Below, piece by piece: positions 21,516-53,497 of a stretch of 58,753 nucleotides of DNA; within the stretch, counting starts at the first letter, position 1, and every line of letters begins with the position of its first letter. A program made the translations under genes and the position numbers. The stretch is from Chloroflexota bacterium. Its GTDB lineage: Bacteria > Chloroflexota > Anaerolineae > J102. The notes beneath the pieces are model-generated. The model saw nothing but the letters and a program-made list of their open reading frames with translations. It was not told the DNA's origin and ran no database searches. The DNA lies in contig JAAENG010000331.1 of assembly GCA_024224665.1 (NCBI GenBank), forward strand, positions 1 to 58,753, in the 5' to 3' direction.

Positions 21516-21600
21516 TGCCGATGGAGGGATTCGAACCCCCACGAGCCAAATGCCCACTGCGCCCTGAACGCAGCGCGTCTGCCAGTTCCGCCACATCGGC
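21516..21600 (-). tRNA. tRNA-Leu (anticodon CAG), class II with long variable arm, CCA not encoded
   Basis: Minus-strand GCCGATGTGGCGGAACTGGCAGACGCGCTGCGTTCAGGGCGCAGTGGGCATTTGGCTCGTGGGGGTTCGAATCCCTCCATCGGCA. It shows a 7-bp acceptor stem, anticodon stem CTGCG/CGCAG with loop TTCAGGG, and a GGTTCGAAT T-loop. Confidence 0.93.
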
Positions 21601-46392: not shown

Positions 46393-48134
46393 ATGAAACA
46401 CAGATCAGTTTTCACACTGATCTGTGTGACATTGGTCATCAGCGCCTGTGTTACGCAGTCTCTCCCCCTGACCACTCCTGAAGCGCCTATCGACATGCCC
46501 AACCCGGCCTCAGTACACTGCGCTGACCAGGGAGGCACATTGGAGATACGCGACGAGGCCGGGGGTCAGGTGGGCTATTGCATGTTCCCCGACGGCTCCG
46601 AGTGCGAGGAGTGGGCTTTCTTCCGCGGCGAATGCGCGCCTGGCGGTGCGGAGGAGGAGGCGAACATACCGAGTCCGACAGCCGAGGCCAGCGCTGAGGT
46701 CAGGCAATACGACAAGGGCTATCGCTTCGAGCAGAATGGCTGGATCTACCTGCACATCAAGGGCGAGCCCTACGAGCGAGGGTTCCAGCACGGCTACCTG
46801 CTGGCCCCCGAACTGGCGGAGATACTCGACAATTTCAAGGATCTCACTTACTGGGACGCCGGCAAGGAGTGGGAGTTCTTCGTCGCGCAAGCTGTGGAGC
46901 AGTTCGCGGAGCGGATAGACTCTGAATATCTGGACGAGATCAAAGGCATCGCCGCCGGGGCGCAAGCTGCTGGAACTGACATAAGCTGGCAGGATGTCCT
47001 GACCTGGAACAGCTACGAGGAGCTACTGGGCTACTGGTGGCCGAACGAATTAGCCGGCAAATACGCCCAACCGACGACGACCATTGCAGCGCCTTCATCG
47101 CCACAGGCTCAGCCACCAAGGACGGCAAGATCGTCATGGCCCACAACTCGTGGGATGCGTTCACCCACGGCCAGTTCCTCAACGTGATCCTGGATACCGA
47201 GCCAACCCAGGGTCACCGCATGTTCATGCAGAGCGCGCCCGGCTTCATCGCCAGTTTCACCGACTTCTTTGTCACCGACGCCGGCATCATGGGCGCCGAG
47301 ACCACCATCGGCGGCTACAGCGAATACGATCCCGACGAGGACCCGGAGTTCTTCCGCATCCGCAAAGCCATGCAGTATGCTAACACCCTGGATGAGTTCG
47401 TGCAACTCATGGAGAAGAAGAACAATGGTGGCTACGCCAACAGTTGGCTGCTGGCGAACACCAACACCGGCGAGATCATGCGCTTCGAGTTGGGATTGCA
47501 GTACCAAAACGTGGAGCGGACGAAGGATGGCTACTTTGTCGGCTTCAACGCCCCGACGGATCCCCGCATCCGCAACCTGGAGACCTCTGGCAGCGGCTAC
47601 AACGACATTCGCACGCCCGCGGGGGCGCGGCGTGTGCGCTTGACGCAGCTCATGGAGGAGCACCACGGGCAGATCGACGTGCGGGTGGGGCAAGATATCC
47701 TGGCCGACCACTACGACGTTTATCTGCAGAAGGAGAATCCCGGCTCGCGCACGGTGGAGGGCCGTTACGATCTGGATGCCTTCGAGTATTGGCCCGCTCG
47801 TATCCCCTTCGCACCGCAGGGCGCGGTGGACGGCAAGGTGATGGACAGCGACATGGCTAAGGACCTCAGCTTCTGGGCGCGCTGGGGTAGTTCCAGCGGT
47901 ATGCCCTACGATGCCGAGGCACATCTCAACGAGCATCCGCAGTGGGGCCATCTGGAGGACTATCTGAATGATCGGCCCACCCAGCCCTGGACGCTGTTCA
48001 GCGCGGGAGAAGGCCAGCATCAGGCAAGCGCAGTAACACCGGCGCCGGGCCTCGCGCAGCCAGCAGAGCGCATCACGGCGAGAATGCTGGTGGAGCCCAA
48101 CGCCCTGATGGGCCCAGGACCAACGCACTTGTAG
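46393..48134 (+). pseudogene. Lipoprotein with an N-terminal DUF333 module fused to a phospholipase-B-like (PLBD/LAMA, Ntn-hydrolase) domain, interrupted by a frameshift near 47040-47090
   Basis: Lipobox VISAC. DUF333 part: MPNPASVHCADQGGTLEIRDEAGGQVGYCMFPDGSECEEWAFFRGEC. ORF 47037..48134 carries DDDHCSAFIATGSATKDGKIVMAHNSWD...SAPGFIASFTDFFVTDAGIMGAETTI, which resembles the PLBD autoprocessing site DHCSALIK...VAHNTW...ETT. The two ORFs overlap in different frames. Confidence 0.8.
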
Positions 48135-49495
48135 TGGAGTCCGGTCGGGGCCACACTGGCATACGTGGCGCCCGATGACGGGCAGGATATGCTGTGGTTC
48201 TATGAGGCAACGGCTGGTGTCAAGAGCGTCCTATTCGATCCCACAAGCATCGATGTAGATGTCGACGTCACCTCGGCGCTGTGGTCACCCGAGGGTGATG
48301 CTATGCTGCTAACCGGTGAAAAGGGTTTGTACTTGCTCGCTTTGCAATCGGGTAAGCTAACGATGGTTGCCGACGGTGGTGAAATAGGATCGGTGAGCTT
48401 CTTTCCTTCAGACATGGCGGCATCCTTCGTACAGAACAATGACCTCTACATAGTCTCGTTCGAGGATGGCCAGACTCAACGCCTCACCAACGACGGGAGT
48501 AAAACAGTGTACAACGACGCTTTGGACAGGGTGTACACCGAGGAAATGGCGACACGCGCGGCCCAGCCTGCCAGCGCCTGGTCCCCCGACGGCCGATGGC
48601 TGATCTCCCTGCACCTGGATGACGAGGAGGTCGGAAGTCATCCGATCATGGATTACAGGCCGATCCCATCCACGGTGAGCACCATCCGCTATCCCACGGC
48701 CGGCAGCGCCAATCCCAAGGCCTCGTTGCGGATGTTTGGCTTCGAGGATGGCAAATCTACGCAGTCAGTGCCGCTATCTGAAGACGCCGAGTACATCCTC
48801 CCCCTCTTCACCTGGAGCCCGGATTCCGCCGAGGCGCTCTACATGACTGTGAGCCGTGACCACAAGGTCCTGGATTTGAAGGCCTGGAACCCGGACACCG
48901 GTGAGGGGCGAACCATCATCAAGGAGACGGATCCGTACTGGGTCAACGAATTCCTTTATGCCCCACCCGTCTTCCTGGCCGACGGACAGCAATTCCTGCG
49001 GCTGTCGGAGCGGGACGGCTTCATGCACCTCTACCTCTACGACATCGATGGCGCCCTGATCCGGCAATTGACCCAGGGCGACTGGCTCATCGACTCCACG
49101 CCGTGGGATATTCTGACGCCAGGAAAGCCGGTGCAAGTGGATCCATCAGGCGCATGGGCCTATTTCTCCACCACCGAGAGCGGCCCACTCGAACGCCAGC
49201 TCCAGCGCCTGAACCTGGAAAGCGACCAGGTGGAACAGCTTTCGCCACCGAAAGGCTTCCATTTATCGAGCTTGTCGGGCGATGGCCAATTCTTGGTGGA
49301 GCAGTTCTCCGGCGCGGATACGACACCGGTTACGCCGATCCTGCTCACCGACGGCAGCCAGGTGGAGGTCCTCGATCGGCGCGGCGGGCCGCCATTGCCC
49401 TTGCCCCAACCCACGCGAGAGTTCCTGACCATCAAGGCTCATGATGGCGTTGACCTGTACGCGCAGATCGTCAAGCCGGAGGACTTTGACCCTGA
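48135..49495 (+). pseudogene. S9 (DPP-IV / prolyl oligopeptidase family) peptidase, N-terminal beta-propeller part, cut by the recombinase element
   Basis: WSPVGATLAYV, WSPDGRWLISLH, and the terminal ...IKAHDGVDLYAQIVKPEDFDP. There is no proper start, and the frame is open directly from the TAG of the upstream gene. Confidence 0.85.
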
Positions 49496-51399
49496 TGGGT
49501 CATAATACCAATCGACAAAAAGATAGCACTGCACTTTAAGAACCGAATAGAACTTCCAAAAGGAAGGCGGAAAGGGAGAAGGAAGCGAACTGGGAATAAA
49601 TGAGGAAGTAGTGGGATAAGATGCTGAGATTTCAGGTTACTTAGGAGGAAATCGATGTCTCATCCCAAGGATTACGTAGTTAGGTCAGAGCGTGTAGGTC
49701 ACCGAGCAGCGGTGGAATGCATGCGAGAAGTATACAGGAAACTCATTCAGTTTGAACAAACTCAGAGAAAGAATAGGAAGCAAGAAATCGTTCCCGTTTT
49801 CATCCGCCAGAGGAAAGAGAAGACATCATGAAAGAGGTAGCAGCGCTCTACGCACGAGTATCGACACGGAATCAAGAACAAGAAGCGACGATAGAGAGTC
49901 AGGTGGCCGAGATAGAAACATACGCAAGAAAGAATGAATATGAGTTGATGGCGGAAATATACTATTTGGATGAAGCAGTCAGCGGCTCCCGCTTAGAGCG
50001 TCCGGCATTGGATCGGTTGCGGGATAGGGCGACGGAAGGTATATTTACGAAGATATTGTGCCTGAGCCCAGACCGTTTGGCCCGGCAGTATGTACATCAA
50101 CAGGTGTTGTTGGATGAATTAAGTCGAATCGGCGTAGAAATGATATTTATCAATCAACCTGCCCAAGTAGAAGGTCCACAAGGAGAACTGTTATTGGGTA
50201 TTCAGGGATTGTTTGCTGAATATGAACGAGCGATGATTACGGAACGTTTGCGGAGAGGAAAGTTGTATCGTATTCGGCAAGGGCAATTGATGAGTCCCAG
50301 TCCGCCTTATGGCTACCGCTACATACCTGTCAGCGAAGCAGGAGGAGGAAGATGGCACATTGATGAAAGAAATGCTGAAATGGTAAGGCAAATTTACGAG
50401 TGGTACACTGTTGAGCAACTGACAATCAGTGCTATAGTCAATCAACTCAATGCCTCAGGCGTAGAAAGGCCGATGAGTGCGCCACTTTGGACATACAGCG
50501 GTGTCAGAAACATTCTCAGACAACAAGCGTACACAGGAAAAGGCTACTACAATCGCACTCGTAGCAACGCAAGTTCAGTAGGACGCCCTCGCAAATCGGG
50601 CCGTGGACATTTAAGTACACCCGAACATCAAGGGCGTCCCCAAGAGGAGTGGATCGAAGTTTCTACACCCGTGATTTTAGAAAAAGAAATTTGGCAACAA
50701 GCTCAAGAACAACTGCAAATGAATCAACGTTTTTCTGTACGGAACAATAAGCGCAACTTCTACCTGTTAAGGGGCTTACTGGTTTGTTCCACCTGTGGCC
50801 GCACGCTAATAGGACGAACCAATCACAAGGGCTCTTCCTACTACTGTGCAAATGGTGGCAAAAATCGTAGCCCTGATGTGCCGGTTCACAGATGTACGAT
50901 AGCAGGCCCCATTGTTGAACCATTGGTCTGGTCAGAAATCGTTCGCTTGTTGCGTAATCCTACGCTTGTGGCTGACGCCTGGCAAAATCAACATAATTCA
51001 GGCCAAATTCCACCGAATGAAATCGAACGCCTACAGAGTCGCCAGCGCAAATTGAAACGCCAATGGATACGAGTGCTTGATCTTTACCAAGAGGGACTTA
51101 TCGATAAACCTGAACTGGAAAATCGTAAATCTCGTCTGGATGACGAATTGAATTCTCTGGAAGTGCGTTTGAAGGAACTCTCCCTACAAAATCGTCAAAT
51201 ACAAACCCAAGAAAAGGTAGTTCAAAATTTCGCTTCCTTCGCCAAAAAAATCGACTCCTCCCTGGCATCACCTTCGCCTGAACTACAACAGGAAATTATT
51301 CGGTTGTTAATTGATCACGTCGTTGTCGAACAGGACGCTATTGTGATCAAGCATATCGTCCCTGCTGACGATGATCGTCGATTGACATTAGGACATAGA
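49496..51399 (+). mobile_element. 1.9-kb integrated element encoding only a large serine recombinase plus a 58-aa ORF, with proposed att core GA
   Basis: Lower GC than the flanks. Terminal imperfect inverted repeat gtcataataccaatcgac (49499-49516) / gtcgattgacattaggac (51377-51394). GA occurs at both junctions (49494-49495 and 51398-51399). The host S9 reading frame is colinear across the junction. Confidence 0.75.
49655..49831 (+). CDS. Small basic ORF (58 aa) translationally coupled to the recombinase, a candidate directionality or regulatory factor
   Basis: My own translation: MSHPKDYVVRSERVGHRAAVECMREVYRKLIQFEQTQRKNRKQEIVPVFIRQRKEKTS. TAGGAGG lies 6 nt upstream of the ATG. Its TGA overlaps the recombinase ATG (ATGA). 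It is below the ORF-track length cutoff. Confidence 0.45.
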   Translation: MSHPKDYVVRSERVGHRAAVECMREVYRKLIQFEQTQRKNRKQEIVPVFIRQRKEKTS

Positions 51400-51735
51400 G
51401 AAGCAATATGGCGTTGTCATCCACTGGTACGGCGGGCCCGTCTTGCAGTTGGTGTCGGATCGCTATGGCGCCACCAACATCTTCAACCACATCGAACGCG
51501 ACGTGCTGTACACGCAGGAGGATTTCATCGTCTGGCGGCTGGACAACCGGGGCAGTATTGGTTTCGGGCACGCCTTCGAAACACCCATCGCCGGGGAACT
51601 GGGGCCGGCAGCCCTGGACGACCAACTGGCGGGCGTCGAATACCTGAAGTCGTTGCCCTATGTGGATGCCGATCGCATCTGCACCGATGGCAAATCCTTC
51701 GGCGGTTTCCTCACCCTGTACGCCCTTACCCATAA
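49828..51735 (+). CDS. Large serine recombinase (resolvase catalytic domain + recombinase domain + Zn ribbon + coiled coil); the ORF runs ~111 codons past the element end
   Basis: AALYARVSTRNQ holds the catalytic Ser. Further support: LCLSPDRLARQ, RIRQGQLMSPSPPYGYRY, CSTCGRTL...YYCANG...HRC (Zn ribbon), and a coiled coil. The portion after ~51399 is an out-of-frame reading of the host peptidase gene. Confidence 0.9.
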   Translation: MKEVAALYARVSTRNQEQEATIESQVAEIETYARKNEYELMAEIYYLDEAVSGSRLERPALDRLRDRATEGIFTKILCLSPDRLARQYVHQQVLLDELSRIGVEMIFINQPAQVEGPQGELLLGIQGLFAEYERAMITERLRRGKLYRIRQGQLMSPSPPYGYRYIPVSEAGGGRWHIDERNAEMVRQIYEWYTVEQLTISAIVNQLNASGVERPMSAPLWTYSGVRNILRQQAYTGKGYYNRTRSNASSVGRPRKSGRGHLSTPEHQGRPQEEWIEVSTPVILEKEIWQQAQEQLQMNQRFSVRNNKRNFYLLRGLLVCSTCGRTLIGRTNHKGSSYYCANGGKNRSPDVPVHRCTIAGPIVEPLVWSEIVRLLRNPTLVADAWQNQHNSGQIPPNEIERLQSRQRKLKRQWIRVLDLYQEGLIDKPELENRKSRLDDELNSLEVRLKELSLQNRQIQTQEKVVQNFASFAKKIDSSLASPSPELQQEIIRLLIDHVVVEQDAIVIKHIVPADDDRRLTLGHREAIWRCHPLVRRARLAVGVGSLWRHQHLQPHRTRRAVHAGGFHRLAAGQPGQYWFRARLRNTHRRGTGAGSPGRPTGGRRIPEVVALCGCRSHLHRWQILRRFPHPVRPYP

Positions 51736-52108
51736 GCCGGATGTCTTCCGTTGCGGCGTGGATGGTTCTGGCCCGACCGACTGGCTGAGCTACGATACCA
51801 TCTACACCGAACGCTACATGGGAATCCCGAACGAGAACCAGGAAGGCTATGCCGCCACGAAGCTCGTCGACCAGGTCGACCAACTCCAGGTCAGGCCCTT
51901 GCTGATTCACGGCCTGGCCGATACCAATGTCCACTTGCAGAATACTGTGAATCTGATGGAAGCCATGATGGCTATCGACAAGCCCTTCGATTTCGTGCCC
52001 TTGCCCAACTCAGACCACCATTACGGGGGCGATGGTCTGGTCGCTGCTCTTTCGGAGAGCGTCGATTACTTCCTGCGGCATATTGGAAACCAGGAGGTGG
52101 AGCAATGA
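51400..52108 (+). pseudogene. S9 peptidase, C-terminal catalytic alpha/beta-hydrolase part
   Basis: (E)KQYGVVIHWYGGP...WRLDNRGSIGFG...DGKSFGGFL (GxSxGG nucleophile)...IHGLADTNV...NSDHHY gives the Ser-Asp-His triad region. Confidence 0.88.
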
Positions 52109-53497
52109 AACTATGGCTGCCTCGGTCTCGGCCTGTTTATCGGCGTGGTCGATTCCTCGGTGGTGAACGTGGCCACGCCTGCGATGCAGGAGGCGTTTTC
52201 CGCGACCGAATCCCAGATGTTGATGCTCATAACCGTCTACAGCCTGGTCTTCGCTTCCTTTCTGCTACTGTTTGGAAAGATCGGTGGTAAATTTGGCCTG
52301 CGCCGGTTGCAGGTTGTGGGCGCAGGACTGTTCGGGCTCTCCTCCATGCTGATCGGACTAGCGCCCTCTATTGGGTTTGTAAACGGTATGCGTGTTTTCG
52401 CAGGCTTGGCTGCGGCCATGGGAGGCGCTTCCGGCATGGCGCTGGTCCACAGCATCTTCAAGGGCAAGGACCGGGCGCTTGCGTTCGGCGTATGGGGAGC
52501 GACTGCCAGCTTGGGCGCTGCTGTCGGGCCTGTGCTCGGCGGTTTGGCGGTCACATATGTCTCCTGGCGGTTGGCTTTCTTCATCAATGTGCCAATCAGT
52601 CTGTTAATGGTTATCGGCTGCTACCTGTGGATATCCGAGGTGAAGCACGAGCATGACGGATCCATCGATTACGTTGGCGCTGCCATCATTGGCCTGGGGC
52701 TATTTACCGTAATCCTGGCCTTGATCTATGGACCCACCTGGGGGTGGTGGGCGGCCAAGACCAGCTTCAGCATTCTCGGCGTCTCTCCTGTCCCATGATT
52801 GCTATCACTCGGTTTCATTCTGGCCCTGATTCTCTTGCCGTACTGGTTGCGACATCGCGAAATGTTGGGCAAGGAGCCTATCTTTGACCTCGGGTTATTC
52901 GAATTTCGTAGCTTTCGAGGTGGGATGCTTGCCTCTCTGGCTCGCCAGATCGCTCAATTCGCCCCCATCTACGCCTTGGCCATCTTCCTGGAAGAGACAG
53001 CAGGCTGGCCCGCCTCGAAAACAGGTCTGGTATTTGTGAATTCAGCCATCGGAGCGATGATTGCCGGTCCCCTTAGCGGGTGGCGAGCCACCCGCTGGGG
53101 CGCAAAACCGGTAGTGATCGGAGGCAAGGTCGTGATGGCCATCTCGATTATTTGGCTCTTGGCCGTCATTGGCGTCAGCGTTGGCCCGGCGATGTTGCTC
53201 GGCCCCCTGTTCCTGTTCGGGCTCAGCATCGGCCTGGCGGCGGTTCAGCTCAACACAGTAGTCATGGCCGATGTGCCGTTGGTCAAGGCCGGTGATGCCT
53301 CGGCTGCCAAATCGGCGATTGGCCGCGTTGGAAATTCCTTTGGGGCCGCCTTCGTGGGTATCCTGCTGGTCATCAGCATCAACGATGTCTTGATCATGGC
53401 TTTTCTTTTTATTGTTGTCGCGCTAGCATTGGCCTACACATTACCTAACGTCAAAGGAGGCGGAGGTGAAAGGGCACACGGAATAAGGCAAGAGTAA
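52109..53497 (+). pseudogene. DHA2/EmrB-like MFS transporter, N-terminally truncated and carrying an in-frame TGA at 52796-52798
   Basis: The frame opens directly after the S9 stop with NYGCLGLGLFIGVVDSSVVNVATPAMQ. No start codon precedes TM1 apart from the GTG at 52145, which lies inside it. ORFs 52145..52798 and 52799..53497 share one frame and are separated only by TGA, inside a TM (GVSPVP*LLSLGFILALILL). Confidence 0.8.

Follow-up and report, generated by a model that had tools for sequence, protein, structure and literature searches.

An insertion-sequence-like large serine recombinase element probably disrupts a decaying peptidase gene and completes its recombinase ORF only on the circle

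A low-GC element of 1,904 bp at 49496-51399 cuts a DPP-IV/S9 peptidase gene at 49495/51400 in the window, the whole stretch of 58,753 nucleotides (58.7 kb) that was analysed. Is it a switch that the host keeps in order to rebuild a peptidase, or a mobile element that has landed in the gene? A preliminary description of this locus had reported an S9 peptidase gene split by a 1.9-kb segment of visibly lower GC, and had likened it to skin/SpoIVCA and fdxN/XisF. All features of the split gene were present at the positions it gave, and GC content was 0.460 for 49496-51399 versus 0.611 and 0.581 in the 2-kb flanks. The element occurs as a single copy within the 58.7 kb, and its ORFs encode a large serine recombinase (LSR) and a product of 58 aa.

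49496..51399, + strand: mobile element, 1,904 bp with one GA copy counted, GC 0.460
48135..49495, + strand: N-terminal part of the DPP-IV-like peptidase (beta-propeller), ending at the crossover (Pfam DPPIV_N, 1.3e-66; homolog alignment)
51400..52108, + strand: C-terminal catalytic S9 part of the same peptidase (Pfam Peptidase_S9, 3.8e-46; invariant GKSFGG, D and H columns kept)
49494..49495, no strand: left GA crossover copy (attL core); GA adjoins the terminal repeat at both junctions
51398..51399, no strand: right GA crossover copy (attR core), positions 2-3 of AGA, which is R524, the last conserved recombinase codon
49496..49518, + strand: left terminal inverted repeat, TGGGTCATAATACCAATCGACAA, P' half-site of the predicted attP
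51374..51397, + strand: right terminal inverted repeat, ATCGTCGATTGACATTAGGACATA, P half-site of the predicted attP

The DPPIV_N ORF (frame 0) stops after ...KPEDFDPDGS at 49503-49505, and the Peptidase_S9 part restarts at 51398 in a different frame (EKQYGVVIHWYGGP...GKSFGG) and runs to 52108. Deletion in silico at GA gave ...DFDPEKQYGVVIHWYGGP, in frame. The preliminary description had expected a family-typical segment here and proposed aligning the rejoined protein to uninterrupted S9 homologs; this alignment, with 13 homologs of 59-79% identity, was gap-free over the junction, and family-invariant residues were retained on both sides, the GKSFGG serine included. The element boundaries were set by this gap-free, in-frame repair of the host protein and are also fixed by terminal repeats conserved in related elements of 1,844-1,931 bp.

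A repeat finder recovered the imperfect inverted repeat noticed earlier (49499-49516 / 51377-51394, 15/18 matches), and GA was confirmed at both junctions; counted manually from the junctions inward, the arms (49496-49518 versus the reverse complement of 51374-51397) gave 17/23 matches. The left repeat is homologous to the family consensus TACGTCCTGGTAATAAACGACAA. The right repeat lies within the recombinase CDS, where it encodes ...DRRLTLGH, and the right-repeat family consensus, ATTGTCGATTGTTACCAGGACGTA, encodes ...DCRLLPGR. More than 20 related elements repeat the same arms with the same spacing and a dinucleotide common to both junctions, indicating that the arrangement in the window is more than chance and bearing out the proposal that the arms are conserved in other copies. 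At the crossover position relatives carry GA, AA or TA, and TG in a distant clade, always identical at both ends of an element; the dinucleotide is lineage-specific within the family. An assembly chimera, in which a low-GC fragment of another organism was joined into the contig, would account for the sharp GC drop of ~0.14 at both boundaries, and the contig does come from a metagenome-assembled genome (MAG). Such a chimera is hardly credible, however, since each junction coincides, to the nucleotide, with a conserved terminal repeat and the two have GA in common, removal of the segment yields a gap-free, in-frame protein, and a chimera would not reproduce the architecture of dozens of independent assemblies.

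The exact restoration of frame that GA excision would bring about, the intact catalytic residues of both halves and the co-orientation of element and host gene, through which host transcription could drive the element, would suit a domesticated switch that the host excises conditionally to rebuild a functional S9 peptidase, like skin/sigK or the fdxN element. We consider this very unlikely. Frame repair is generic to conservative serine recombination and is seen in relatives within transposase genes: the distant clade inserts at TG within IS256/Mutator transposase genes, and its removal in silico gave intact PF00872 ORFs (414 and 375 bits). The family is multi-copy and multi-site, and in the host's nearest relative, which is syntenic, the site is empty. 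Against the XisF model the window recombinase scored 119 bits, below the cut-off of 375, and we know of no differentiated terminal cell type in the host organism. Moreover, the host gene carries two further lesions upstream of the element.

48132..48134, + strand: in-frame TAG, second lesion, in the conserved N-terminal GPGPxxL[NKSM]WSP of the host gene
47071..47075, + strand: 1-nt deletion, third lesion, CCGAC in place of the CCN GAC of relatives

In the nearest relative the codon of this TAG is AAT. The deletion, near 47073, puts the DUF333 and phospholipase-B-like ORFs, which belong to one fused gene, in different frames; across the site L170 has an unbroken frame, KYAQPDDDHCSAF, and P0005 is a single fusion protein of 1,203 aa. 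Because of the nonsense codon and the frameshift, excision of the element alone would not restore the full protein, and the host gene looks like a pseudogene; MAG consensus or assembly errors could in principle also give rise to these lesions. A gene with both lesions argues for insertional disruption of a decaying gene rather than a regulated switch, and the developmental analogy drawn in the preliminary description did not stand.

Extending the search for copies and arms to related genomes, as had been suggested earlier, returned a multi-copy family with conserved repeats, abundant in Chloroflexi and with more distant members in several other phyla. Its elements are about 1.85-2.0 kb long and share ~23-bp imperfect terminal inverted repeats (the two attP halves), a 2-bp crossover, a small ORF of ~50-60 aa that overlaps or adjoins the start of the recombinase gene, and an LSR gene that exits through the right end. 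Among 119 relatives of the recombinase (cluster representatives, 56-83% identity), ~110 are on contigs of at most 5 kb, most of those 1.8-2.5 kb, and many contigs end at the element ends. Copies at different sites of the same genome were identical over 1,977 bp (L038/L075, 100%) or nearly so over 2,003 bp (L031/L049, 99.75%); L044 holds one element copy broken up by a segment with another family member, and P0242 and P0246 are one element with two different flanks in a single MAG. Other members of the close clade lie in intergenic, repeat-rich DNA, and only the window copy is mid-gene. The family is apparently undescribed, judged from full-text literature searches and the IS families known to us. 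Most probably, the window segment is an autonomous, IS-like element of this large family with the LSR as its sole enzyme, which disrupts a decaying gene and whose recombinase ORF is complete only on the circle.

49828..51399, + strand: large serine recombinase core, 524 codons, no stop within the element
51400..51735, + strand: extension of the recombinase ORF in the integrated state, encoded by the flank, 111 codons, out of frame with the peptidase gene, then stop
49496..49603, + strand: candidate 3' part of the recombinase gene, WVIIPIDKKIALHFKNRIELPKGRRKGRRKRTGNK followed by a stop, 35 codons plus TGA

The window recombinase matched the Pfam families Resolvase (2.3e-32), Recombinase (1.4e-17) and Zn_ribbon_recom (2.5e-08), and it retains all family-invariant residues, S12 in YARVST included. 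The 119 relatives have a common C-terminus, ...CRLLPG[RH]R; 49 stop exactly at ...PG[RH]R and the rest carry unrelated tails, the lengths past the same conserved residue ranging from 0 to >100 residues with no mutual relationship. Many integrated relatives have a stop codon right after the crossover, which yields a clean 524-aa protein, and the integrated window ORF reads out of the element to 51735 (635 aa in total). Throughout the family, the recombinase ORF has no stop inside the element and continues across the circle junction into a left-end tail of 28-41 codons; in the window, too, only that junction would bring the left-end tail into frame with the recombinase ORF. The tail frame was open for 29-53 codons in 20/20 close relatives, whose two alternative frames meet a stop after 2-20 codons, and was open in 31/31 distant relatives. 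In all 51/51 the frame stops at about the same place, including in GC-rich hosts, in which other frames are often open.

In the distant clade, synonymous and nonsynonymous changes in the tail numbered 560:112 in the junction-continuing frame versus 69:602 and 96:629 in control frames, and entropy by codon position was 0.40/0.45/1.15, a substitution pattern that indicates strong purifying selection in this frame and no other. For the close clade, the synonymous to nonsynonymous ratio was 0.58-1.09 versus 0.18-0.49 in controls, a weak signal of selection, and the opening 22 codons of the tail (the leftmost 66 nt), though conserved, showed no third-position periodicity. Conservation of the close-clade left end is largely at the DNA level, which makes translation of the tail less secure than in the distant clade. 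The preliminary description had also predicted an LSR-mobilised element with a dyad-symmetric attP and a 2-bp GA crossover, and L019 was assembled with a junction of this kind. This unit-length, circularly permuted contig reads ...GGACGTG-TA-CACGTCC... (right arm, dinucleotide, left arm), and its recombinase ORF passes through the junction into a 32-aa tail; it is the sole junction-bearing contig in the 174 loci, and a head-to-tail tandem could not be told apart from a circle.

Is the open end of the ORF incidental, the 524-aa core being the working enzyme and the left-end tail conserved as DNA only (binding sites or promoter) and never translated in the enzyme? The conserved but aperiodic 66 nt of the close clade and the clean 524-aa proteins of many integrated copies would fit this, as would our failure to find a core-plus-tail protein in 5.8 billion word-indexed protein clusters or 1.84 billion cluster representatives. 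We nevertheless regard it as unlikely, given the purifying selection on the distant-clade tail solely in the junction-continuing frame, the frame open in 51/51 with its similar end position, and the continuous ORF of L019. In addition, the frame is kept despite changes in tail length (a 6-nt insertion in L010, three extra residues in P0271), and the distant-clade tail sequences lack a conserved internal start codon that would allow separate translation of the tail. A recombinase gene split by its own attachment site is a property of the family, and we infer the same for the window copy.

51382..51387, + strand: TTGACA, -35 half of a circle-only predicted promoter
49501..49506, + strand: CATAAT, -10 half of the same predicted junction promoter

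The predicted junction reads TTGACA-17 nt-CATAAT, an 11/12 match to a consensus that assumes sigma-70-like promoters in Chloroflexi, and a score of at least 11 was reached in 1/2,800 shuffles. This promoter is conserved only in three related elements, the window copy (WIN), L081 and L082, and for the integrated state a search ahead of the small ORF gave no promoter above chance. By established LSR chemistry, the recombinase would pair both element ends and cut at the dinucleotide, producing a circle with a dyad-symmetric attP and a precisely resealed donor site, and the circle would then be inserted at a new site having the same dinucleotide. The window element probably entered a secondary site in the DPP-IV-like peptidase gene, from which excision would still restore ...DFDP-E-KQYG... 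exactly. An attB or attP sequence of the window copy was searched for and not found. With 524 codons at the right and the last 35, a basic tail, at the left, the window copy would form a 559-aa ORF on the circle only, and in its sub-lineage the circle would also assemble the junction promoter; the integrated copy would make the core with an arbitrary flank-encoded tail. The split gene would couple the form or the level of the enzyme to the state of the element.

Some features of the window copy are those of an immobile relic, that is, a single insertion that lost its mobility, left the peptidase gene permanently inactive and decays alongside it: the arms are less symmetric (17/23) than in most relatives (15-20 of a possible 24, local match), Arg replaces the conserved Cys of DDDCRL in the recombinase, the integrated ORF has an out-of-frame tail of 111 aa, and there is a single copy in 58.7 kb. 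This is quite improbable, as every family-invariant recombinase residue is kept, the small ORF retains both fully invariant and 5/8 nearly invariant residues of its alignment, the tail frame is open, both promoter halves are intact and element GC shows no drift toward the host value. The arm type is also that of L081 and L082, indicating a lineage trait rather than decay.

An autonomous LSR element of this kind has several partial parallels. Tn4451/Tn4453 (TnpX) and Tn5397 (TndX) are transposons of clostridia that a large serine recombinase mobilises. The window element resembles them in its large serine recombinase as transposase, a predicted circular intermediate, no target duplication and GA at both ends, joint and target, and Lyras and Rood reportedly found in 2000 that in the Tn4451 circle the joint supplies the recombinase gene with a promoter. 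These transposons are, however, 6-21 kb long with resistance, mobilisation or conjugation genes and recombinase genes complete within the element, whereas the window element is 1.9 kb without cargo and its recombinase ORF crosses attP. The multi-targeting LSR clade of Tn4451/Tn5397 type usually has DUF4368 (10.1101/2021.11.05.467528, which also cites TndX and Tn5397), a domain absent from the window recombinase. The IS607 family has a serine transposase, TnpA (PMC4058570, PMC6188088), and is similar in being an insertion sequence with a serine recombinase, a circular intermediate and no target duplication. The transposase of IS607 is a small protein of about 200 aa whose DNA-binding domain precedes the catalytic one, and IS607 lacks terminal inverted repeats and shows little target specificity; the window protein has LSR architecture and scored 34.9 bits on the IS607 model, below the cut-off of 110.

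SSV1-type archaeal integrases and intP/intX of Myxococcus phage Mx8 have attP inside their own gene. There, too, the recombinase ORF is split or changed upon integration, and its product differs between the integrated form and the circle, but these are tyrosine recombinases of viruses and plasmids, in contrast to a serine recombinase on a 1.9-kb element without other cargo, and the window family separates only the last 28-41 codons. Circle-junction promoters are known from IS911, IS2, IS30, IS21 and others. ISPpu9 is an example of a REP-targeting IS (PMC12288879). Activity tied to the circle joint and preference for repeated target sequences are common ground with these elements, which differ in having DDE or IS110-type transposases and a joint that assembles a promoter, not coding sequence.

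Cyanobacterial serine-recombinase elements, including fdxN (XisF) and minimal ones, interrupt protein-coding genes, non-developmental ones included, and their authors inferred within-genome transposition for the serine type (Hilton et al. 2016, PMC4874684). The serine recombinase interrupting a protein-coding gene is shared, but these elements belong to a different phylum and are discussed as excising in heterocyst development (PMC4874684), and the window recombinase, by its XisF score, is not an XisF equivalog. In skin/SpoIVCA, SPbeta/SprA-SprB and gin/GirC-GirX, an LSR and a small accessory factor excise the element precisely and rebuild the gene, and gin shows that gene-intervening elements need not be prophages (PMC5595907, PMC4191935, PMC5499854). 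Those sporulation elements are single-copy and fixed in one gene, which a terminally differentiating cell requires at a late stage, with developmentally timed excision, unlike the multi-copy, multi-site window family with an empty site in the nearest relative and an otherwise broken host gene.

49655..49831, + strand: conserved ORF of 58 aa, whose stop codon shares an ATGA with the recombinase start

The preliminary description had called the element recombinase-only, but this small ORF is conserved across the family. Searches of Pfam, NCBIfam and PDB sequences gave no hit for it, and it is a candidate directionality factor or regulator. Close-clade small ORFs conserve the motif VRxERxPxRxAxERxREAYxxL, and that of the distant clade carries a related one.

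The DNA separating the two halves of the S9 peptidase gene is lower in GC than its surroundings, as had been described (0.460 at 49496-51399 versus 0.611 and 0.581 in the flanks), and the repeat finder recovered an inverted repeat at its ends at 15/18 positions. Read from the junctions, the arms match at 17/23 positions, and such terminal inverted repeats are conserved across the family of related elements; GA lies next to both arms, at 49494-49495 and 51398-51399. Like an insertion sequence, the element is short and carries functions for its own mobility only, its 1,904 bp comprising a recombinase gene, a segment that encodes a recombinase tail, and one further window ORF:

49655-49831, small ORF of 58 aa, upstream of the recombinase

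No cargo genes were found in the element, which has no room for them and no other conserved ORF. The large serine recombinase and the 58-aa ORF of the preliminary description are both present; its term "recombinase-only" is inaccurate, as the small ORF is conserved in the family. Throughout the close clade, i.e. the Chloroflexi-type relatives of the element, this ORF carries the motif VRxERxPxRxAxERxREAYxxL and overlaps or abuts the recombinase start. Searches of Pfam, NCBIfam and PDB sequences gave no match to it, and the single-sequence AlphaFold model of its product, one long helix with a pLDDT of 74, is uninformative. Rfam yielded no match inside the element; the sole Rfam match in the window is a single tRNA gene at 21516-21600 (- strand), unrelated to the element.

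The recombinase matches PF00239 (Resolvase; 2.3e-32, residues 5-153), with S12 of the motif YARVST at an invariant column of the recombinase alignment, as well as PF07508 (1.4e-17) and PF13408 (Zn_ribbon_recom; 2.5e-08), and its sequence matches the structures of SPbeta SprA (YokA) and the A118 integrase. Having the catalytic, recombinase and zinc-ribbon domains, it is, as judged from its sequence, a large serine recombinase (LSR). Only these three domains were found, and the protein differs in lacking DUF4368 from the multi-targeting LSR clade with which that domain is associated (10.1101/2021.11.05.467528). The 58.7-kb window holds one copy of the element, with a predicted attB of GGACTTTGACCCTGAGAAGCAATATGG and a predicted attP of TTGACATTAGGACATAGATGGGTCATAATACC. 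The source contig belongs to an NCBI metagenome-assembled genome (MAG) of an uncultured organism, labelled Chloroflexi bacterium and with locus tags GY759_; an assembly chimera was rejected given that the junctions are nucleotide-precise and the family architecture is reproduced, and a prophage or ICE remnant was rejected given that the compact 1.9-kb unit is conserved across many independent assemblies.

Exploring the host gene, we found that the DPP-IV N-terminal ORF ends with ...KPEDFDPDGS and a stop codon at 49503-49505, while the Peptidase_S9 ORF runs in another frame from 51398 to 52108. Joining the flanks at GA gives one continuous frame of 689 residues reading ...AQIVKPEDFDPEKQYGVVIHWYGGP..., and its alignment with 13 uninterrupted homologs (59-79% identity) is gap-free at the junction, the invariant residues being retained, the GKSFGG serine among them. 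The gene appears to extend beyond its peptidase part. Homologs of the P0005 type (1,203 aa) consist of a phospholipase-B-like domain fused to the peptidase, and the host gene at 46393-49505 appears to be such a large fusion, of DUF333, phospholipase-B-like and DPP-IV parts. The phospholipase-B-like part shares its frame with the peptidase but is cut off by a TAG at 48132-48134, within the conserved segment GPGPxxL[NKSM]WSP, and the loss of 1 nt near 47073 causes a frameshift farther upstream. In the nearest relative (L170/L171; 79% identity) the gene order of the window is conserved: phosphatidylserine decarboxylase, DUF333/phospholipase-B-like gene, peptidase. There the insertion site is empty, AAT stands at the codon where the window reads TAG, and the frame is kept where that of the window is shifted. 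The same gene carries a frameshift of its own in this relative, different from that of the window, and this suggests that the gene has been decaying independently within this lineage.

Just downstream of the peptidase, a major-facilitator transporter gene (52104-53497) is split by an in-frame TGA at 52796-52798 (...GVSPVP-stop-LLSLGF...), and its start also looks frameshifted, with one surplus base between ATG AAA CTA and ...GCLGLGLFIGVVDSS; this neighbour of the peptidase gene is probably a pseudogene too. Reassignment of stop codons as an explanation of the in-frame TAG and TGA was rejected, as TAG, TGA and TAA each end 8-10 long ORFs in the window, and the long ORFs that are intact elsewhere in the window count against a generally error-ridden assembly. 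Because of the TAG, the 1-nt deletion, the damaged neighbour and the comparison with the relative, the peptidase gene looks like a pseudogene in a decaying neighbourhood. Together, the data confirm the preliminary description in its observation and its structural predictions, and the likeness to skin, fdxN and gin extends to the predicted precise excision, which would restore the coding frame of the peptidase gene gap-free. The analogy with developmental gene-interrupting elements such as skin and fdxN does not hold, given the empty site in the nearest syntenic relative and the TAG and frameshift in the host gene. The element is insertion-sequence-like and sits in an apparent pseudogene, and the event in the window is an ordinary one, a mobile element disrupting an already decaying gene, with no evidence of a regulated switch.

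The element belongs to a large family. The best 119 cluster representatives of the recombinase are 56-83% identical to it, their named sources being mostly Chloroflexi or Anaerolineae, and about 110 of the 119 lie on contigs of at most 5 kb, mostly 1.8-2.5 kb, the signature of a repeat that breaks assemblies. Close-clade elements in the fetched loci measure 1,844-1,931 bp, with xx|TACGTCCTGGTAATAAACGACAAAA at the left end and TTGTCGNTTNNNACCAGGACGTA|xx at the right, where xx is the crossover dinucleotide: GA in most elements, AA in three (L012, L017 and L081) and TA in L090. The arms are conserved in other copies, and the arm type of the window is common to its closest relatives, L081 (83%) and L082 (81%). 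Every element examined has the same dinucleotide at both junctions, and it is present as a single copy at the junction in L019, a contig described below. The family reaches beyond this clade: at 30-38% identity, relatives were found in Actinomycetota, Acidobacteriota, Planctomycetota and Alphaproteobacteria, among them cultured strains and their megaplasmids. Cultured carriers of family members include Microvirga, Singulisphaera sp. Ch08 and Litorilinea aerophila.

Analysis of individual genomes revealed near-identical copies of related elements at different sites of one genome, as with insertion sequences: the L038 and L075 copies are 100% identical over 1,977 bp and the L031 and L049 copies 99.75% over 2,003 bp. 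In one MAG the same element (P0242/P0246) has two different right flanks, several Microvirga replicons hold 2-5 family-matching places each, and a Rhodopila copy (L044, 1456-7967) is broken by ~4.5 kb holding a second, 67%-identical family member, a nested insertion. Members occupy many unrelated sites and are not fixed at one orthologous site, a further point at which the analogy with skin and fdxN fails.

The targets of the two clades are of different kinds. Most close-clade members lie between genes, in DNA with many short palindromic repeats, and are flanked by ...CCACAGA on the left and TGAACGCAGAT... on the right; among eleven such elements with both flanks, the window copy is the only one in the middle of a recognisable gene. 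At four loci (L005, L006, L007 and L083) the flanking short palindromic repeats read ...CCACAGA | TGAACGCAGATAAACGCAGAT..., with inverted copies nearby, and resemble the element's own end, GGACGTAGAT; they may represent target families of the REP kind, or else miniature or decayed element ends. The distant clade (31 loci within L020-L105; 30-38% identity, 1,929-2,038 bp; e.g. L027 3652-5620 and L075 3671-5617) has TG at both ends in 29/31 loci and a common attB consensus, which lies within the QRCxVH-coding segment of IS256/Mutator-family transposase genes, the insertion being antisense. Removal of these elements in silico yields intact PF00872 ORFs, and the distant clade is an insertion sequence targeting another insertion sequence. 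Since the frame is also restored in IS256 transposase genes, exact restoration is a general property of the family, and we rejected in-frame restoration of the peptidase as evidence of domestication.

By their curated cut-offs, the XisF, Ccr and IS607 families do not include the enzyme. Its score was 119.3 bits against the cut-off of 375 for the XisF equivalog (NCBIfam NF041201), 120.7 and 105.2 bits against 900 for CcrC and CcrB, respectively, and 34.9 bits against 110 for the IS607 family (NCBIfam NF033518), small serine transposases with an N-terminal DNA-binding domain, where the catalytic domain only was matched. Among the gene-intervening systems compared, which included the gin element of Bacillus (PMC5595907), the cyanobacterial interruption elements are closest to the window element in appearance: they can be as small as 1.3 kb with a recombinase only, and those of the serine type are thought to transpose (PMC4874684). 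With respect to size, cargo, domain content and gene structure, transposons of the TnpX/TndX type differ, being larger, carrying resistance, mobilisation or conjugation genes, being associated with DUF4368 and having complete recombinase genes; the likeness lies in the GA at both ends of the window element, with AA, TA or TG in related lineages. We take these transposons to be the closest in working, as they have an LSR, a GA crossover and a circular intermediate. Our search of the full-text literature (ISfinder was outside its scope) returned no LSR-based insertion-sequence family and no LSR gene split by attP. We could not find this widespread insertion-sequence family described, and absence from full-text literature is no proof of novelty; the family would add a kind of insertion sequence mobilised by an LSR, abundant in Chloroflexi metagenomes.

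Within the element the recombinase ORF meets no stop codon; it continues across the right junction to 51735, so that the integrated gene encodes 524 conserved residues followed by 111 residues of out-of-frame peptidase sequence. All 119 representatives share the C-terminus ...IVIKHI[IV]PTDDDCRLLPG[RH]R; 49 end exactly at ...PG[RH]R and the rest run on with unrelated tails of 1 to >40 residues. Continued across the predicted circle junction, the ORF enters the left end of the element, where the continuing frame is open for 29-53 codons in 20/20 close-clade elements while the other two frames close after 2-20. The tail encoded there has the close-clade consensus YVLVxNDKNxPLHxENRIxLPERKxGRPRK followed by a stop, and in the window it reads WVIIPIDKKIALHFKNRIELPKGRRKGRRKRTGNK followed by a stop (49496-49603). 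Where tail length varies, the frame is kept, as with the 6 nt inserted in L010 and the three additional residues of P0271, and the tail has no conserved internal start codon. In the distant clade the tail spans 28-39 codons in 31/31 elements, reading H[DH]PNAIDAVRFT..VPF....RRRRDARFP and a stop, and its end position is similar even in elements whose other frames remain open. Over codons 9-34 of the distant-clade tail (12 distinct sequences) entropy rises from 0.40 and 0.45 at the first two codon positions to 1.15 at the third, and of the single-nucleotide codon differences 560 are synonymous and 112 nonsynonymous, as opposed to 69:602 and 96:629 in the control frames. The close-clade tail is weaker in the same direction (ratio 0.58-1.09 versus 0.18-0.49 in controls) and shows no codon periodicity in its first 22 codons, indicating that constraint there is largely on the DNA. 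On the simplest reading, the enzyme takes its last ~30-35 residues from the opposite end of the element, and core and tail become contiguous only on a circle or in a head-to-tail tandem.

The right flank is readable in 15 integrated close-clade copies; seven of these have a stop directly after the crossover (GA|TGA or GA|TAA) and encode a clean 524-residue protein. Searches of protein collections found no joined form: a profile of the core C-terminus plus tail retrieved end fragments only from a word-indexed collection, and HMMER with the window core plus tail gave 90 hits among 1.84 billion representatives, nearly all with matched stretches that stop at the junction; none of five hits examined, two of which reach past it, is a core-plus-tail protein.

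A joined form was present as DNA in L019 (1,871 nt), a contig assigned to a Herpetosiphon MAG and itself a unit-length, circularly permuted copy of a family member. It shows the dyad-symmetric attP architecture that had been proposed for the circle, ...CCAGGACGTG-TA-CACGTCCTGG..., that is right arm, one dinucleotide and left arm, the joint at 1060-1061 being a perfect palindrome (GGACGTG-TA-CACGTCC). Rotated at this junction, the contig aligns colinearly and completely with the integrated L090 element (89.4% identity). Flanking DNA is absent, and the two contig ends share 2 nt; the recombinase ORF crosses the junction and continues into a tail of 32 residues. L019 is either an excised circle or a head-to-tail tandem. 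Exact scans of viral contigs for the family attP and the window-copy attP gave no match; among the 174 loci a degenerate attP pattern found none and a fuzzy search L019 only, and these scans did not detect the junction of the window copy.

The joint may also create a promoter. On the predicted circles of the window element, L081 and L082, TTGACA in the right arm and CATAAT in the left arm would lie 17 nt apart (11/12 consensus positions); a score of at least 11 arose in 1/2,800 shuffles, and the other clades, at 7-9, are at chance level. In the integrated element, a sigma-70 scan of the + strand gave no above-chance promoter ahead of the small ORF. We infer a junction promoter in the window sub-lineage, assuming sigma-70-like promoters, which may not be those of the organism. 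In Tn4451 a promoter is formed at the circle joint.

These features would fit a cut-and-paste cycle. By established serine-recombinase chemistry, recombination of attL with attR at the crossover dinucleotide would free the element as a circle that carries a dyad-symmetric attP and would close the donor site precisely, and the circle would integrate into sites with the same dinucleotide and a loose flanking consensus. With the attachment site inside the gene, the enzyme of an integrated copy would be tail-less or mis-tailed; the full enzyme with its basic C-terminal tail of ~32-35 aa (559 aa in all for the window copy) would be encoded by the excised circle alone, which in the window sub-lineage would also gain a promoter. 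The position of attP within the recombinase gene and the purifying selection on the tail suggest that the integrated and circular states have different forms of the recombinase. Speculatively, tail, junction promoter and small protein may together make the enzyme differ in this way and bias the direction of recombination, the tail-less form favouring excision and the full-length form integration. That the family is a self-contained ~1.9-kb cut-and-paste unit whose recombinase senses the state of its own element, the tail swap, perhaps with the small protein, setting directionality, is a tentative proposal that we consider rather doubtful. We know of no precedent for such control of serine-integrase directionality and, to our knowledge, attP inside an integrase gene is known only for tyrosine recombinases (SSV1 type, Mx8). 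A state-dependent recombinase would bear on how serine integrases choose their direction, a question of long standing.

The compact enzymes, with short, computationally defined attP/attB pairs and several natural target classes, are candidates for genome engineering. The elements also matter for annotation: assemblies of metagenomes break at them, and annotation routinely gives their recombinase ORFs spurious C-termini. A family member from a cultured strain, on a Microvirga ossetica plasmid (NZ_CP016620.1; L169, 1393-4126), is annotated only as "recombinase family protein" and adjoins IS6 and IS110 family transposase genes.
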